The notes under the pieces: generated by a model | Databases searched by the model: none | Told to the model about the DNA's origin: nothing | The model's input: the letters and a program-made list of their open reading frames with translations, nothing else | Program-made: the position numbers and the translations under genes | Part shown: positions 48,005 through 63,560 of the stretch, one piece after another | Layout of the letters: each line of letters opens with the position of its first letter | How positions within the stretch are numbered: the stretch's first letter is position 1 | Sequence record: OM386667.1 | DNA from: Escherichia phage vB_EcoM_REC | Length of the DNA: 64,000 nucleotides | Direction: 5' to 3' (one strand)

Positions 48005-49465
48005 GTGCCAAAAATAGTCACTTGGGAACAATATAAAACAGATATAAAACAAGCTTATCAAGGTAAGTCTTGGACTGTTGTAGATTATATTGAGCCGTGG
48101 AACGGCAATAAAACTAAACTTAGATGCATCTGTGCTCTGCATGGAGAATGGAAAACAACAAGCATAAATACCGCTAAACTAGGGAGGGGTTGTCCAGAAT
48201 GCGGTAGGGAGATTATAAGTAAAGCAGTATCTATAAACAAATCAAAAACCTGGGAGCAATATAAAGAAGAAGTGCAAACCACTTACAATCAGGCAGGTAA
48301 GTTTTGGACTGTTACAGGATGGCACGGAGAATGGAAAGGATGGAATACTAAACTGGTTTGTTGTTGTGCTTTACATGGGGAGTGGAGGTCTACTTCTATA
48401 TCTTCTGCGAAAAACGGGAGTGGATGCAGGAAGTGTATGGGAGAAGCAAACAGAGAAAGAACATCGATTGCATGGGAGAAACATAAAGAAGAAGTAGAAG
48501 AAGCTTATAAAGAAAAACCCTGGATTGTTAGAGGCTATGTGGAACCGTGGAACGGTTCCCGCACTAAGTTGATTTGTGAGTGTAAGGTTCATGGTCAATG
48601 GTGCACTACCACTGTAAACAGTGCTAAACAAGGGACTGGATGCTACAGTTGTCAAAGAGAAATGACGAAACAAAGGAATACAATGGAGGATAAACAACAT
48701 GTTGAAGATTTTATAAAAGCTTGTCCTGATAATGTAGAGCGTAAATATTATCGTAGCGATAGAGTAGATAGATTAGGTCGTCAGGTTTACTGGATTGTAG
48801 AATGTCCTATATGTGCAGAGGATGATTATTGTAAAGAAGGCTTATGCGATAATAAATTTGAGATGAAGATGAGTCATTTGAAAAGGGGTGGCCTTCCTTG
48901 CCGTTGTTCTAAATATTATCATTACACTCCTGAACAATGGGCCTACCGTATGACCAAAGCTTGCCAGGAACGAGGGGATCAATTTATAGGATTCATTGAT
49001 AAGGTAAGCAATAACAGCAAGTTTAAATATCTATGTAGGGAGCATGGAGAGCAAACGATCACACCTACCGATTATCTCAATGGGAAAGGTTGTCCAGGCT
49101 GTAAGAACAGAAATATGCAAGAATTTTACATCAATATTATTCTTGATGAGTACGGAGAAGACACGGGAGCTTACAAGTTGGGGATTGCAAAGGACAGTGA
49201 TATCAGGATCAAAGGGCAGAATGCAAACAACAATTACTCTATGCGCCGTATAGCATTGTTCGATCTGCCGTCCTACCAAGCTTGCAGGGCGTTAGAGAGT
49301 AAGCTAAAGTCTAAGACTGATCAGATTCTACCGTCTATTGGCTGTGTAGAACGCTTGCACATGAAAGATGGTCATAGTGAAACCTTCCTGCGCGAGGATT
49401 TGGCTATCGTCTTAAGTGCTATCAACCAAGCAGGTGGAATAATGAGAGAGGAGGAAACATGTTAG
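48005..49465 (+). CDS. zinc-ribbon-repeat protein with C-terminal T5orf172 (GIY-YIG-like) domain, possible homing-endonuclease-type element
   Basis: 486 aa, GTG start; three tandem units of W.G..TKL.C.C..HG.W..T.I..AK.G.GC..C plus a fourth Cys-rich unit; C-terminus FYINIILDEYGEDTGAYKLGIAKDSDIR...FDLPSYQACRALESKLK resembles T5orf172. Confidence 0.45.
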   Translation: MPKIVTWEQYKTDIKQAYQGKSWTVVDYIEPWNGNKTKLRCICALHGEWKTTSINTAKLGRGCPECGREIISKAVSINKSKTWEQYKEEVQTTYNQAGKFWTVTGWHGEWKGWNTKLVCCCALHGEWRSTSISSAKNGSGCRKCMGEANRERTSIAWEKHKEEVEEAYKEKPWIVRGYVEPWNGSRTKLICECKVHGQWCTTTVNSAKQGTGCYSCQREMTKQRNTMEDKQHVEDFIKACPDNVERKYYRSDRVDRLGRQVYWIVECPICAEDDYCKEGLCDNKFEMKMSHLKRGGLPCRCSKYYHYTPEQWAYRMTKACQERGDQFIGFIDKVSNNSKFKYLCREHGEQTITPTDYLNGKGCPGCKNRNMQEFYINIILDEYGEDTGAYKLGIAKDSDIRIKGQNANNNYSMRRIALFDLPSYQACRALESKLKSKTDQILPSIGCVERLHMKDGHSETFLREDLAIVLSAINQAGGIMREEETC

Positions 49466-49824
49466 TTGACGTTCAAATTATGCGCAACGAAAGAATGGAC
49501 TTCTTTGAAGCAGTAGAGAAACATCTGATCAGATGGGACTATGAATTTGTTCCTGCTGGATGTGGACCAGTAGAGCATTTAGCGGAAGACGACGATGTAT
49601 ACATGATCATTCGTCAAGTGTACCAGACAGACCAGTGTGAAGAAACTCCCGAACTGATTTTGTTTGAGTGTAAAGATCTTGCAAAATATTTTGACTATGG
49701 CGGAAAAGAGGGTCATAATCTCTCCAGATACAATAAACGTCTACTTATCTTAGACTACATGCGGAACAACAAACACAAACTCATCGACGCAGACGCAGTT
49801 TATGGCTACTGGTGGATGGACTAA
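49459..49824 (+). CDS. hypothetical protein
   Basis: 121 aa ORF, RBS GAGAGGAGG. Confidence 0.4.
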   Translation: MLVDVQIMRNERMDFFEAVEKHLIRWDYEFVPAGCGPVEHLAEDDDVYMIIRQVYQTDQCEETPELILFECKDLAKYFDYGGKEGHNLSRYNKRLLILDYMRNNKHKLIDADAVYGYWWMD

Positions 49825-49837
49825 CAAAGGAGAAACT

Positions 49838-50017
49838 ATGGCACGTTTAGCAGATCATGAAATCTTTAAACCTATTCTGAACCACTATGATGAACTTAAA
49901 GCAGTGTTGGATTGTTATAGAGAGGATGAAGAACGTTTGGAAGTCAATCTTAAGATAGTTCTGATGAAAGCTTTTCAAGACGGGCAAGCTAAAGTTTTAG
50001 AAGGCATGAAAAAATGA
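49838..50017 (+). CDS. hypothetical small protein
   Basis: ATG at 49838 preceded by AAAGGAGAAACT. Confidence 0.35.
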   Translation: MARLADHEIFKPILNHYDELKAVLDCYREDEERLEVNLKIVLMKAFQDGQAKVLEGMKK

Positions 50018-50556
50018 GAATAACTGATGAATATGTATTCTTCTTTTCACATAAAGATGTGTTTAGTAATTGGTATATTGCACCCTTTACAGAAACTGAA
50101 CCAGGTTACAATGAGACTTTCTGTTGTGTTGAGCAATATATGATGTGGCGTAAGGCTTTGCTGTTCAAGGATCATGCGATTGCAGCAGCTATCCTTGATC
50201 ACTCAACTATACGTGACAACGAGAGGAAACAAGCATACTACAAACGTATGGGTCGAGCGGTATCTGGTTTTAATAATGATATGTGGGAAGAGAACCGTGA
50301 GCGTATTGTTATGCGAGGCTTATGCTTGAAATATGTACAGAATCCAGATTTGTATGCAGACTTACACCTTTACCAATACAAAACGTTTGTTGAAGCAAGT
50401 CCTTACGATAAGGTTTACGGTATTGGAATGGGAATGTATGAACCAGGGGTGCTAAACCCTGCTACCTGGAAAGGGCAGAATCTTTTAGGCAAATATCATA
50501 ATAAACTGATCGAAATACTTTTCCCAGACAAAATACCGCAAAGACGATATTTGTGA
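50014..50556 (+). CDS. NADAR-domain protein (YbiA/DUF1768 family)
   Basis: 180 aa; FSNWYIAPFT, CVEQYMMWRKALLF, KYVQNPDLYADL, YDKVYGIGMG and GQNLLGKYHNKL follow the conserved NADAR blocks. Confidence 0.7.
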   Translation: MRITDEYVFFFSHKDVFSNWYIAPFTETEPGYNETFCCVEQYMMWRKALLFKDHAIAAAILDHSTIRDNERKQAYYKRMGRAVSGFNNDMWEENRERIVMRGLCLKYVQNPDLYADLHLYQYKTFVEASPYDKVYGIGMGMYEPGVLNPATWKGQNLLGKYHNKLIEILFPDKIPQRRYL

Positions 50557-50611
50557 TATTTTAACTTTTTTCATTTTTAGAACAAAGGCGTCACTTTGTA
50601 GCACAGAAATA

Positions 50612-50650
50612 AGGCTCCTACAGCACCGTAGAGAGCCTGTTATTTTGTCC
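50612..50650 (+). terminator. rho-independent terminator ending the 44.3-50.6 kb unit
   Basis: AGGCTCCTAC-agcacc-GTAGAGAGCCT (one bulge) followed by GTTATTTTG. Confidence 0.6.
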
Positions 50651-50798
50651 TATACAAACCCTTGTCTTTTTCAGTTTGCATCACTAGGATTCGATCTGAG
50701 TGGGTTCCTGAAGGTTTACCAATAAGATTAAAGGTTATATCAAATTCCCACTATCTTTTATCTCAAAAATCCCTCAAATTATTTAAACTTTTTAAGAA

Positions 50799-50984
50799 TT
50801 TACAAAAGTGAAAGTTGAAAACCAAAATTTAAAGTTTAGGAAAATTATCTTAAAATGTTAGATACAAAACAAAACTCAAAAGTCAAGGAAAATTTTAAAA
50901 ATTTTGCGCGCCCACAGTATTTAAAGTTTTTTTGCTTTTACAAAAATGAAAGTACAAAAGCAAAATTTAAAGTTTACAAAAATT
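50799..50984. repeat. AT-rich region with two 48-bp imperfect direct repeats and AAAGTT-type submotifs
   Basis: 50799-50846 TTTACAAAAGTGAAAGTTGAAAACCAAAATTTAAAGTTTAGGAAAATT versus 50937-50984 TTTACAAAAATGAAAGTACAAAAGCAAAATTTAAAGTTTACAAAAATT. Confidence 0.7.
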
Positions 50985-51000
50985 TTTATGCAGGTGAAAA

Positions 51001-51114
51001 TGAGAAGAGTTCTCATATGGAAATGCAAATGATAATGATTCGCATTTAAGTTTATAAATGAGATTGATTCTTATTTAATAAGGTAAATGACAATCATTCT
51101 CATTTAGAGAATGA
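51001..51114. promoter_or_regulatory. two palindromes (candidate protein-binding sites)
   Basis: TGAGAA-gag-TTCTCA at 51001-51015 and TCATTCTC-attta-GAGAATGA at 51094-51114. Confidence 0.4.
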
Positions 51115-51364
51115 CGCGCAGGGGTGGTGTTTGTCTCGCGCTCCCGTGTCCCCTCGCCATGTAATAAGAATAACAGATCCAACCAGGAAAGCAAGCGATT
51201 ATTTTATCTTTACATTTCTTTACAAATATATAGCACCCAGCCTACCGGCGATCAACCTTCCAACCAGTGCCCCCTGGTATGTTAGCCCCGCCTTTACGCC
51301 GTGGGGTGGCGCTTCCTCTTCTGTATGTAAAACAGTATAAGCCCGATCCCTGGGCTTGTCAAGA

Positions 51365-51631
51365 TTATTTTTTGTTTTCTTGCCAGGATAGGACACCTAA
51401 CCAAAAATACATATCGCCCCGCGCCCCTGGTGGTATCTTGCTTTCCCCGCCGCCACTGCAAGCCCATAGATAACCATTTGCGAACGTATCAAAATGATCT
51501 ATCTCTTCCACCTTATGATCGCCCAGGTTGAGAACGGTTTCAACCTTTAAGCCTGTTGCGCTTGCTACCTGGTGGACCGTGCCGCCTTGCCAGCCCAATG
51601 AGTGCATAAGGTGTAATGTAGTATTTGTCAT
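51365..51631 (-). CDS. hypothetical protein encoded in a GC-rich island, opposite orientation to the early genes
   Basis: 88 aa ORF with ATG at 51631 preceded by AAAGGG; local GC content clearly higher than flanks; weak support. Confidence 0.25.
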   Translation of the reverse strand: MTNTTLHLMHSLGWQGGTVHQVASATGLKVETVLNLGDHKVEEIDHFDTFANGYLWACSGGGESKIPPGARGDMYFWLGVLSWQENKK

Positions 51632-51739
51632 GATATCGCCCTTTCTTTGTTGTGCGCCCTGGTTGGCGCGGTAGAAAGATAATAGCCCTTTTCTTTATAT
51701 ATAGCAAGCAAAAAGAAAATAAAAAAGATTGAAAAATGG

Positions 51740-51796
51740 TTGACGTTAACCAGGCGGCGGCGTAGTATTCATCTTGTAGGGCGGCAATGGTGCCGC
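51740..51796 (+). promoter_or_regulatory. early promoter-leader module (TTGACG-17-TAGTAT plus hairpin GCGGCA-atgg-TGCCGC)
   Basis: -35 51740-51745, -10 51763-51768, hairpin 51781-51796, ATG at 51818. Confidence 0.6.
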
Positions 51797-51817
51797 TCAC
51801 TATTTGGAGTTAAGATC

Positions 51818-52015
51818 ATGGCAACATTGCACATTGTGGCGAAAGCTGGACAAATCAACGTAGTGGTAAACGGTTTTACTGAGTTCAGTCACCCCCAGGA
51901 TGATCATGAAACGGTTTTATCTTTCATTGATTCCCTGTTAGAAATGGGAGTCATTACAGAAGACCAGCACGCTACAAAATGCAAGCGCGTTAATCAAATC
52001 GCAGGAATAGAATAA
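51818..52015 (+). CDS. early small protein
   Basis: 66 aa from ATG 51818 after RBS GGAG; the track ORF starts at a TTG that is the -35 box. Confidence 0.5.
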   Translation: MATLHIVAKAGQINVVVNGFTEFSHPQDDHETVLSFIDSLLEMGVITEDQHATKCKRVNQIAGIE

Positions 52016-52021
52016 AAACTA

Positions 52022-52080
52022 TTGACAACAAACAACAACCTGATAAGATGTATCACATAGGGCGGGAAGTGGTTTCCCGC
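52022..52080 (+). promoter_or_regulatory. early promoter-leader module (TTGACA-16-TAAGAT plus hairpin GCGGGAA...TTCCCGC)
   Basis: -35 52022-52027, -10 52044-52049, hairpin 52062-52080. Confidence 0.6.
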
Positions 52081-52105
52081 TCGTAACAGAAGAGAGATTA
52101 TCATC

Positions 52106-52378
52106 ATGGCATCATATAGCGCAACAATGATCGTAGCTGGCACAACTGGTAAACCTATGAGCGGTGGCGGATCTTTCGCTAATATCAATATTGACGGGCG
52201 TTTATCCCTGGACGCAGCGATCGCTATTGCACGGGAAACATTTAAGAAAGAATGTAATTTCAACAAGCAAGATTATCTCGGTTTCGCTATTGAAAAAACC
52301 GCGCGCTTTGTTGATTATAAAAGCCCGAAAATGGTTGATACTACACTAAAAGCGCAAGATGTAGCGTTTTTGCTTTAA
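52106..52378 (+). CDS. early small protein
   Basis: 90 aa; RBS AGAGAGA. Confidence 0.5.
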   Translation: MASYSATMIVAGTTGKPMSGGGSFANINIDGRLSLDAAIAIARETFKKECNFNKQDYLGFAIEKTARFVDYKSPKMVDTTLKAQDVAFLL

Positions 52379-52381
52379 GGC

Positions 52382-52436
52382 TTGACATTAACGAATAATT
52401 TGTTAATATGTTACATAAAGCGGGAATAGTTCCCGC
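52382..52436 (+). promoter_or_regulatory. early promoter-leader module (TTGACA-16-TAATAT plus hairpin GCGGGAA-tag-TTCCCGC)
   Basis: -35 52382-52387, -10 52404-52409, hairpin 52420-52436. Confidence 0.6.
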
Positions 52437-52454
52437 TATTTGTAAGGTGGTAGA

Positions 52455-52712
52455 ATGTTTTACATCAAATTAAAAGGTCACGTGATCGCGTTCAAAGATA
52501 ACGCTTTTTACAGATTAGCAAAATATGCGTTAATACATCCCCACTATGTTTATATAAGGGGGCGTGATGAAATAAATATCTTTGATCAAACAACATGCGA
52601 GAACATCGAGATCCGCAAGGTTGGCGTACGTGATTATCGTACATCTTTCTACCCTTGCAAGGATTCAGCAAGTCTTTTTAAAGTATGCCAATTGTTGAAA
52701 AAAGGTGGTTAA
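52455..52712 (+). CDS. early small protein
   Basis: 85 aa; RBS AAGGTGG. Confidence 0.5.
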   Translation: MFYIKLKGHVIAFKDNAFYRLAKYALIHPHYVYIRGRDEINIFDQTTCENIEIRKVGVRDYRTSFYPCKDSASLFKVCQLLKKGG

Positions 52713-52713
52713 T

Positions 52714-53271
52714 ATGGGCCGCGAATATGTGATCCAGTCTTGGGTAAAACATGAAGCAGATGATCCGCGCATCATTCCCGATCATCTTATCGATGAATCC
52801 ACGGGATATAGCGGTGAGCAAATAGGTAACAGATTAGCACGTAGTAACGGCAACGTAAAAGCGCGTTATGTGCGCCCTGGCTGGCTGGCAAATGGTAACG
52901 CTGATTTATCCAGTGCGGAAGATGCGAGCGACGGCGCGAAAGATAATCCTTTGTACAAAGTTGATCCGGCTTTTCGTGTCCTGGATGAATACCCCAGCAA
53001 GATAGCGGCGCTCGATCAGGCCCTGGAAAGTAAGCGCATCACCTGGACCGCTTACAACATGGCAAAAAACGTACTTGATGGTAAATTGATTCAAGCTGAA
53101 AGAAAATTAGCCAAAATTGCAGCCATAGCCCAGGAGGAAGACGAGGAGACAACGGAAGAGGAAGAGTACGAAGAGATCCCGCCGTTGTTGTGTGTTGATG
53201 CTTTTCCTGATTATCAGCCGACAGAGGAAGAAAAAAGGATCGCACTAGAAAACTTTGAAAATAGTCTTTGA
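52714..53271 (+). CDS. early protein with acidic C-terminal region
   Basis: ATG 52714 after AAAGGTGG; acidic stretch EEDEETTEEEEYEE. Confidence 0.5.
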   Translation: MGREYVIQSWVKHEADDPRIIPDHLIDESTGYSGEQIGNRLARSNGNVKARYVRPGWLANGNADLSSAEDASDGAKDNPLYKVDPAFRVLDEYPSKIAALDQALESKRITWTAYNMAKNVLDGKLIQAERKLAKIAAIAQEEDEETTEEEEYEEIPPLLCVDAFPDYQPTEEEKRIALENFENSL

Positions 53272-63119: not shown

Positions 63120-63560
63120 ATAACCATACCTCCCAGGGTAACAGGCTGTTAGAGAGCCATTTATAACGGTTAAAATCGATCAACAACCAACAACAAACCA
63201 TCAAAAACACCCTTTTACCTCCTTTCTAGTGCAATGATAACCATTATCATCTATACATGATTATATATGCAATATAAGCGCATAACTATAATGTTGATAA
63301 CAGTTCGCAACAACTAACTAACCAACAACCTAAAACAATAAGCAAACTAATCATAATCAAAGGAATAATAGCAAGATGATTGATAACGACAAACAATCAA
63401 ACCATGATGAATACTAAGCAAGATAACGATAACACGACAAAACAACCAACTAACGAACAATAACAAACGAAACCATTAAAATAATAACTATTGCCATAAT
63501 AGTGACTGAATGAAATCATTACAAAACGAATCATTCCCAGGATCATCATTAGCACGCTAT
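63120..63560. other. non-coding A/C-rich, G-depleted tract (CAA/AAC-rich on the plus strand)
   Basis: runs such as AACAACCAACAACAAACCATCAAAAACACC and AAACAACCAACTAACGAACAATAACAAACGAAACC; no ORF of 60 aa or more on the plus strand from 62985 to the window end. Confidence 0.6.

Follow-up and report, generated by a model that had tools for sequence, protein, structure and literature searches.

A near-invariant non-coding element that appears to form a leftward transcription unit beside the early genes of phAPEC8-like coliphages and their relatives

Phage-encoded small RNAs (sRNAs) are exemplified by the species 1 and 2 RNAs of T4 and by the prophage sRNAs DicF and IpeX. The lambda origin, the primary origin of T7, oriF and oriG of T4 and the RNA II system of ColE1 are transcription-activated or RNA-primed origins of replication, and that of lambda combines dyad iterons, an AT-rich tract and a requirement for transcription. 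Promoter-early stem-loop (PeSL) motifs form the cassettes known from T4-like myoviruses (Arbiol et al. 2010 PMC2839356; Comeau et al. 2014 PMC4122927), Repeat Region 3 of T5-like phages is the injection-stop-signal region (Davison, bioRxiv 10.1101/866236), and the Fur box is described by the 19-bp consensus GATAATGATAATCATTATC or by the 7-1-7 model TGATAATnATTATCA (PMC2189734). Here we describe a locus that recalls each of these systems in part. It is a GC-rich island at positions 51100-51720 of a 64,000-nucleotide stretch of DNA (hereafter, the window) from Escherichia phage vB_EcoM_REC (sequence record OM386667.1), a phAPEC8-like coliphage of the genus Phapecoctavirus, and it contains a short non-coding core that is nearly invariant across two subfamilies of phages.

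The island consists of two predicted leftward transcription units that face a rightward array of early genes (Table 1). The conserved non-coding unit among them, apparently undescribed so far, appears to be a phage-encoded non-coding transcription unit, and with moderate confidence we favour the reading that its core is a small trans-acting structured RNA. A single-copy, near-invariant element with a strong host-type promoter is a candidate for a new phage small RNA or for an origin region. Most of the GenBank records listed show no feature over the element, and others cover it with spurious plus-strand open reading frames (ORFs). The phage group concerned, with phAPEC8, phi92, PVP-SE1, CR3 and the Klebsiella Mydoviruses, is in wide use as a source of candidates for therapy and biocontrol.

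The island is like a PeSL cassette in pairing a host-type early promoter with a stem-loop beside small ORFs of a plastic early region, both in the promoter at 51707..51679 with the hairpin at 51654-51669 and the ORF that follows, and in the hairpin within the spacer of promoter P1. It is unlike one in that it belongs to another phage lineage, that its three units are each unique, and that P1 would drive the non-coding core and not an ORF. In Repeat Region 3 of T5, near-identical palindromes (AAATGAGAATCATTCTCATTT) are likewise arrayed and followed by GAGAAT and a GC hairpin, in a large, repeat-rich and ORF-free setting; however, the T5 region lies in the terminal repeat with paired DnaA boxes, of which there are none here, the homologous element of phage BME3 stands about 11 kb from the genome end (if its record begins at the terminal repeats), and the T5-like DNA is without the core. 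The palindromes are dyads of the 7-1-7 type, as in Fur boxes, and match that model at 12 of 14 positions twice here and at all 14 once in a divergent homologue (locus L052), but they mostly carry G/C at position 4 on either side of the centre and lie about 60 nt or more downstream of promoter P2 rather than over a promoter. As in the origins of lambda, T7, T4 and ColE1, one or more promoters point toward dyads or iterons and an AT-rich tract, and a G-rich transcript is predicted; unlike in those origins, there is no initiator gene nearby, and the AT-rich tract is not present in all clades. Finally, the locus shares with the T4 species 1 and 2 RNAs, DicF and IpeX a short predicted non-coding transcript with its own host-type promoter among early genes, while differing from known phage sRNAs in having no Rfam match and in a conservation of the core far above that usual for base-pairing sRNAs.

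Table 1. Features in and around the island, by position in the window; coordinates preceded by an L number refer to loci fetched from other phages.
Feature	Coordinates	Strand	Remarks
NADAR-domain gene	50014-50556	+	PF08719, E = 3e-35; left neighbour of the non-coding region
Terminator of the rightward NADAR gene	50612-50638		
AT-rich region	50700..50995		24-25% G+C; 72-nt direct repeats at 50775-50846 and 50913-50984, 138 bp apart
Four 21-bp palindromes	50998..51105		consensus AAATGAGAATnATTCTCATTT; 29-bp spacing; Fur-box-like
GC-rich hairpin region	51113..51158	-	conserved motif GAGACAAACACC at 51126-51137
Candidate promoter P2	51167..51194	-	TTGCTT-16-TATTCT; 7/12
Direct repeat	51207..51224	-	TGTAAAGA-AA-TGTAAAGA, immediately upstream of P2; nearly invariant
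Non-coding core	51242..51311	-	70 nt, 62% G+C, nearly invariant
Core hairpins	51297-51311; 51261-51281	-	hairpin a (CGCC/GGCG); covarying hairpin
Leader resembling a ribosome-binding site	51312..51324	-	5' leader, purine-rich ACAGAAGAGGAAG; conserved in alignments
Promoter P1	51334..51362	-	TTGACA-17-TATACT; 11/12 of consensus; predicted start near 51326-51328
Hairpin in P1 spacer	51339-51357	-	AAGCCC-AGGGATC-GGGCTT; 17-nt spacer; called terminator-like
88-amino-acid protein gene	51365..51631	-	phrog_19316; homologue of phi92 gp224; all-helical model
Hairpin in 5' untranslated region	51654..51669	-	GCGCCAACCAGGGCGC; then Shine-Dalgarno AAAGGG, ATG at 51631
Promoter of the small gene	51679..51707	-	TTGCTA-17-TATTAT; 9/12 by consensus scan
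Island promoters, in order of transcription	51707..51679; 51362..51334; 51194..51167	-	then hairpin; hairpin in spacer; weaker, then hairpin
GC-rich inverted repeats	51113-51158; 51261-51281; 51297-51311; 51339-51357; 51654-51669		
DUF7170 ORFs of relatives	L007 1791-1973; L010 1820-2011; L012 1642-1827; L011 2178-2354	-	
Plus-strand "hypothetical protein" calls over the element	L001 3530-3871; L003 2532-2741; L015 1495-1944; L013 1502-1798	+	
Palindrome locus, T5-like chee24	L035 2380-2925		left terminal repeat
Palindrome locus, rV5-like EmilHeitz	L034 2040-2290		

Promoter P1 and the near-invariant core

Promoter P1 begins two bases past the stop codon of the 88-amino-acid ORF. A promoter scoring at least 9/12 is present at this position in 42 of 42 distinct homologues (mean 10.1, up to 12/12), a score attained by 7.8% of random 30-nt windows, and it stands at a near-fixed place, 59-63 nt upstream of an anchor in the core. 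The sequence of the P1 spacer is wholly different between genera, yet in every case it folds into a GC hairpin, in many with a GNRA loop, and both compensatory and G-U changes are seen among the homologues. On the mRNA of the 88-amino-acid ORF the hairpin is followed by a U-rich stretch. Judged from the alignments, a variable spacer that keeps its hairpin is the signature of a true terminator inside a true promoter. One 29-bp element (51334-51362; the same in 42 loci) would thereby both end one transcript and start the next.

Within the core, mean column identity is 88% (alignments A1 and A5), and the linker and the promoter spacers are variable. Hairpin-loop length differs by 1, 2, 4, 5 or 6 nt among the relatives, with 1-nt loop differences even between this phage and phAPEC8. 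Such indels break the frame, which implies that no reading frame is conserved on either strand, and on this evidence the core is non-coding. An open minus-strand frame at 51220-51396 was rejected as a gene, since indels in the relatives interrupt it, and the plus-strand ORFs annotated across the element in phAPEC8, Ro121lw, KE22 and F1M1E are best taken as spurious on the same grounds. No conserved plus-strand promoter was found upstream of the core; the conserved P1 points leftward.

When positions 50600-52100 were compared with phage records by megablast, 146 records were matched, with Phapecoctavirus the best (ESCO37 100%, phAPEC8 96%) and Justusliebigvirus (phi92) next at about 90% identity. 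Sensitive blastn extended the segment 51086-51330 well beyond the range of the ORF, at about 70-76% identity overall in the more distant groups, namely Seunavirus (PVP-SE1), Certrevirus (CR3 and phages of Pectobacterium and Enterobacter), Mydovirus (KpS8, Ro1) and Klebsiella Stephanstirmvirinae; this segment is unannotated in nearly all records. The homology search suggested in the preliminary description of the window returned relatives for both halves of the island. The core itself is near-invariant over Stephanstirmvirinae and three genera of Vequintavirinae, and a 101-nt core query found 226 phage records with exactly one place in each. Between them, the phages with this near-fixed core infect seven genera of host: Escherichia, Salmonella, Klebsiella, Cronobacter, Pectobacterium, Enterobacter and Serratia. 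Exact-pattern scans found the core in 16 viral contigs and 14 metagenome contigs, and a second anchor pattern gave the same viral contigs again and nothing new.

Outside phages, the core was matched once among 185,579 bacterial species genomes, on a 4-kb contig of a metagenome-assembled genome, and nothing similar to the island was found in 5,426 Escherichia coli genomes, for which reason an origin of the element as host-derived or host-mimicking DNA was rejected. The phage-only, syntenic distribution indicates that the island is ancestral and not foreign DNA. The core is kept in CR3 although the downstream repeats differ, and it persists in Raoultella phage Ro1, where an insertion of about 750 bp parts it from the downstream elements.

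Two of the relatives carry insertions at this place. In Ro1 (L012 880-1500) a 197-amino-acid ORF with its own ribosome-binding site sits at the 3' edge of the core (GGATCGC|...), with the target part-duplicated; its product looks by eye like a homing endonuclease, and Pfam finds no domain in it. In Pectobacterium phage P7_Pc (L009 1690-1890) an insertion remnant of about 190 bp occupies the same GATCGCC site and holds another promoter with a hairpin in its spacer.

Structure prediction favoured one strand only. Over 51090-51328, the minus strand folds at -76.5 kcal/mol, which is better than shuffled sequence (z = -2.0), and the plus strand at -56.7 kcal/mol, which is no better (z = 0.0). In the fold proposed by RNAalifold, CGCC/GGCG forms a 4-bp hairpin and GGCGG/UCGCC a long-range helix, and there is an apical hairpin as well. 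Over 36 distinct sequences 96.9% of the cells are paired, a share that drops to 19-46% on sliding the partners. At pair 48:70, 20 sequences have A-U, 16 have G-C and none is broken, and pair 53:66 changes from A-U to U-A in one sequence, with a second U-A in L052. This divergent homologue, found with the covariance model at 58 bits, keeps the two hairpins and the same order of parts. An alternative CCCC:GGGG pairing, perhaps a pseudoknot, may also form.

The covariance model of the core (R1), searched over the fetched loci only, scores 99.7 bits with a single match in the window and finds nothing in the rV5-like or T5-like loci. Rfam 15 (4,227 families) returned no match at E<=1 over 49500-53000 and, at E<=10 over 51000-51400, only chance-level matches located in the palindromes; there is no transfer RNA (tRNA) or transfer-messenger RNA (tmRNA) gene in the window. 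Likenesses noticed by eye to the 3' end of 16S RNA, to 4.5S RNA and to tmRNA are unsupported by the Rfam models and were treated as chance. A role of the core RNA as antisense to the repeated early hairpins of the 5' untranslated regions (UTRs) was rejected, the duplex being no better than with shuffles (z = +0.37).

Downstream of the core, a variable linker leads to the TGTAAAGA repeat, a possible UP element or activator site. An indel of 10-11 bp between this repeat and the -35 hexamer of P2 separates the two subfamilies. In most Vequintavirinae homologues P2 reaches 9/12 (TTGCAA-17-TATATT or TTGATC-16-TATTAT), with hexamers that are conserved and a spacer that varies, as at P1, and in L052 it reaches 10/12, counted by hand (TTGACC-16-TATTAT). 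The rV5-like phage EmilHeitz also has the motif GAGACAAACACC of the hairpin region beyond P2, in two modules that lie in tandem, and in T5-like phages a similar hairpin adjoins the palindromes. Further copies of the P2 loop motif were considered as targets and rejected, as the window holds no other copy.

The leftward protein gene and the composition of the island

The preliminary description had singled out the island by its composition, and this proved well founded: 51100-51720 has 47.5% G+C against a window mean of 39.4%, with 28.5% in the left flank (50560-51099) and 42.6% in the right. In a sliding-window count, 0.14% of the 621-bp windows of the 64 kb have a G+C at least as high, with a maximum of 48.5% at 51231, and the GC-rich inverted repeats that had been reported are indeed present, at five places from 51113 to 51669. 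This richness has two sources, the ORF at 47.9% and the non-coding core at 62%. Compared with 45 plus-strand ORFs of 55 or more amino acids in the neighbourhood, a set supplied by a mechanical ORF call, the ORF is higher by only z = 1.7, and several members of the set are themselves at 47-50%.

Genes run rightward from about 43.5 kb through the window end, and the minus-strand ORF noted earlier as opposing its neighbours was recovered at exactly 51365-51631 (88 amino acids, ATG start). Between 51740 and 61700 about 20 uniform plus-strand cassettes follow one another, each with a TTGACA-16-TAAGAT-like promoter, some 10 nt, a GGGCGGCAATGGTGCCGC or GGGCGGGAAnnGGTTTCCCGC hairpin and a small ORF, an arrangement analogous to the PeSL cassettes of T4-like phages; in the ASO2A record other annotators have labelled such hairpins as terminators directly after promoters. 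The island had been said to lack this promoter-hairpin module. The uniform plus-strand cassette is indeed absent from 50556-51740, but the island has minus-strand promoters of its own, and its three minus-strand units have no sequence in common with the plus-strand cassettes or with each other. Placed back to back with the first of the rightward early promoters, at 51740-51768, the small-gene promoter is kept in phi92 and tuntematon, in both of which the GCGCCAACCAGGGCGC hairpin is also unchanged. The equivalent spot in the Klebsiella relatives has TTGCAC-17-TATACT, and this promoter before the ORF88 homologue (that of the 88-amino-acid protein) likewise holds a terminator hairpin in its spacer.

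The 88-amino-acid ORF is a genuine conserved small early gene, already annotated as hypothetical in many relatives (for example, phi92 gp224). Close homologues number 21, the versions from Klebsiella phages being 44% identical. A profile search of 1.8 billion representatives with this family recovered about 220 small proteins of 60-150 amino acids; a few giant proteins also matched were set aside as artefacts of leucine-rich repeats (LRR). Family members sit in small-gene arrays on a 350-kb contig, and one adjoins a T4-family gene (PF26821, Phage_T4_Y16F). The AlphaFold2 model has five helices at a mean pLDDT of 95.4, and the protein found no match in Pfam or among PDB sequences, while fold searches gave nothing informative. 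In Vequintavirinae the small leftward ORF upstream of P1 belongs to another family, DUF7170 (PF23776), and was rejected as a homologue of the 88-amino-acid protein for that reason; in Klebsiella Stephanstirmvirinae a DUF7170 ORF and an ORF88 homologue are both present, in tandem. The exchange of the two families between groups indicates that the position upstream of P1 is conserved and its occupant gene exchangeable.

Readings of the non-coding half

Alongside foreign origin, the preliminary description had offered a structured non-coding RNA locus as an explanation of the island. The left half (51100-51362) fits this description; the right half holds a small protein-coding gene of the ordinary sort. 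In the reading that we favour, host sigma-70 RNA polymerase would read both leftward units early in infection. The first would comprise the promoter at 51707..51679, the 5' stem-loop, the Shine-Dalgarno sequence, the 88-amino-acid gene and the intrinsic terminator hairpin, within which, at P1, the second would start. From about 51327 the P1 transcript would run leftward through the purine-rich leader into the 70-nt G-rich core with its two or more hairpins; beyond the core, transcription would pass P2, with its conserved upstream repeat, and a GC hairpin before it reached the palindromic protein-binding sites and the AT-rich repeats. The core RNA, made early, would bind a host or phage factor conserved across all hosts, and a conserved binding factor of this kind would account for bases that stay nearly fixed from one to another of the seven host genera even as the spacers on either side drift. 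On this view RNA and terminator structure, together with a moderately GC-rich gene, would be the source of the G+C richness.

Beyond the observed anatomy, promoter conservation, non-coding status, single copy and phyletic spread, we infer from comparative sequence data that the core functions as RNA, and the evidence for a transcribed structured RNA is reasonable, though not conclusive. A role in trans is favoured because the core is self-contained and stays invariant amid change, with downstream repeats that differ by genus and an insertion that is tolerated in Ro1; near-total invariance over seven host genera suggests that the partner is itself conserved.

Several points weigh against this reading. 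The covariation rests on two pairs (both sides change in 2 of 20), and the 13 of 20 pairs that are invariant are uninformative; in L052 the long-range helix 36-40:81-85 is short of two pairs. Helices being symmetrical, the core hairpin could equally be a feature of the DNA, and a site beside palindromes and iterons suits a cis-acting DNA role at least as naturally. P2 is weak in this phage (7/12), and no convincing intrinsic terminator was found downstream of the core. The leader ACAGAAGAGGAAG is similar to the ribosome-binding sites of the rightward early genes and has no ATG, GTG or TTG within reach; the RNA reading does not account for a leader of this type without an ORF. No target or partner of the core RNA was identified, the early 5'-UTR hairpins included, and our literature search found no RNA sequencing, transcription start site or non-coding RNA data for this phage group.

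The strongest rival, which we regard as possible though distinctly less probable than the RNA reading, takes the ORF-free span 50557-51362 as a cis-acting DNA control region, most likely a replication origin. The palindromes would be sites for an initiator or a host protein, the AT-rich repeats an unwinding element, and P1 and P2 would provide transcriptional activation or a G-rich R-loop primer, with the core serving as a block for the RNA-DNA transition or for loading of replication proteins. Consistent with this, the element is unique in the genome, and four to five dyad sites, 29 bp apart, border a region of 24-25% G+C that has conserved repeat units, into which two promoters are aimed; that tract is clade-specific, however, the Certreviruses having 40-55% G+C at the place and PVP-SE1 having ORFs close to its palindrome. 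The predicted RNA and the non-template strand are G-rich (plus-strand GC skew -0.12 to -0.25), but across the window GC skew tracks transcription direction only, and the rV5 paper likewise links changes of skew to transcription. ORF-poor, repeat-laden DNA is found at the same place in CR3 and EmilHeitz; against this, an insertion of about 750 bp that parts the core from the other elements is tolerated in Ro1. For rV5-type phages no origin is defined, and an ORF-free "non-coding" box appears on the map of the rV5 genome; against this, the neighbours here are a NADAR gene and small ORFs, with no evident initiator gene. In T5 the homologous palindromes adjoin DnaA boxes termed "reminiscent of oriC" (Davison), but T5 origins were mapped elsewhere (Davison), and the present locus has no DnaA or IHF consensus site. 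A bolder combination, in which the core RNA or an RNA-DNA hybrid licenses or primes the unmapped origin of rV5-, phAPEC8- and PVP-SE1-type phages, a host metalloregulator of Fur type on the palindromes acts as the gate, and the T5 module works by the same mechanism, is speculative and we consider it improbable.

Slightly less probable still is a decayed early cassette, with promoter and ribosome-binding site retained and the ORF lost, kept as a convergent-transcription or terminator insulator that blocks upstream read-through into the rightward array. This would explain a leader that resembles early-gene ribosome-binding sites without an ORF, it agrees with the compact composite design of a terminator inside a promoter and with a unit placed exactly at the border of two gene blocks, and T4-like phages are known to have cassettes that combine promoter and terminator (PMC2839356, PMC4122927); against it, some 70 nt near-identical across two subfamilies amid diverging spacers and linkers would not be expected of such a remnant, and neither would compensatory base-pair change. 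Horizontal acquisition of the island, the leading explanation of the preliminary description, finds a jump in composition and an opposite orientation in its favour and is nonetheless very improbable, the segment being collinear in 146 records and its non-coding half syntenic over two subfamilies, with no match in E. coli and essentially none among the bacterial species genomes, an unremarkable G+C in the ORF, and no mobility genes or bounding repeats around the island in the ORF and repeat listings of the window.

Palindromes, AT-rich repeats and neighbouring genes

The palindrome is matched four times in the window against 0.08 expected, and only at this spot. The relatives have one to five copies each, spaced at 29 bp in 66 of 91 cases, and the innermost copy also pairs with GAGAATG as a hairpin at 51095-51113. 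The symmetrised profile, AATGA(G/T)AATnATT(C/A)TCATT, equals the Fur consensus but for position 4 on either side of the centre, where 65% of the copies (about 2:1) have G/C and Fur prefers T/A. The copies at 51030 and 51088, which match 12 of the 14 positions of the 7-1-7 consensus, are two of four such sites in the 64 kb; the best copies match the Fur 19-mer at 15 of 19 positions, and one copy in L052 matches the 7-1-7 model at 14 of 14. Against E. coli genomes the palindrome stretch gave chance matches only, even at E<=10.

The AAATGAGAATnATTCTCATTT palindrome is common to myoviruses of the phAPEC8/PVP-SE1 type, rV5-like phages and T5-like siphoviruses. In EmilHeitz a module of promoter, hairpin and palindrome occurs twice in tandem, together with a repeat-laden stretch of 600 bp, and the core is missing. 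Such palindromes in unrelated phages would be explained most simply by one host protein that binds the DNA of all of them, and the sharing of the array with the long-unexplained injection-stop region of T5 suggests a DNA-binding factor in common, perhaps host Fur, which has so far been considered for neither phage group. The best Fur-box match of the window is a separate site, TGATAACCATTATCA at about 63233-63249 (13/14 of the 7-1-7 model, 15/19 of the 19-mer), in a second ORF-poor stretch at 63160-63500 of odd, A/C-rich composition (caacaaccaacaacaaacc...).

Immediately to the left of the island, over 50700-51110, G+C falls to about 24-25%, lower than anywhere else in the window. Within 50700-50995, outside the island but part of the same ORF-free region, there are A/T tracts and several weak plus-strand promoter-like sites, and the 72-nt direct repeats look like iterons or bent DNA, as far as their sequence suggests. 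Their units are about 72-75% conserved in L052, which also has repeated units of its own. At the same place Certreviruses have different repeats (CGATCGAGACCC and similar) at 40-55% G+C, and in PVP-SE1, where the palindrome is present once, almost no spacer is left and the annotated ORFs come as close to it as 45 bp. The idea of a packaging site or terminus was rejected: in the Justusliebigvirus BME3, whose terminal repeats are reported to measure 342 bp (PMC12210895), the element lies at 11.2-12.0 kb, some 11 kb from the genome end on the assumption that the record begins at the terminal repeats.

The order of NADAR gene, non-coding region and small ORF is maintained in L052. The NADAR family reverses ADP-ribosylation, and the NADAR-domain protein could have an anti-defence function. 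Further upstream, a plus-strand gene at 48005-49465 encodes a 486-amino-acid protein with at least three repeats of a module of about 60 amino acids with paired cysteines (W..W.G..TKL.C.C..HGEW...S.....G.GC..C), which looks like a zinc-ribbon repeat protein.

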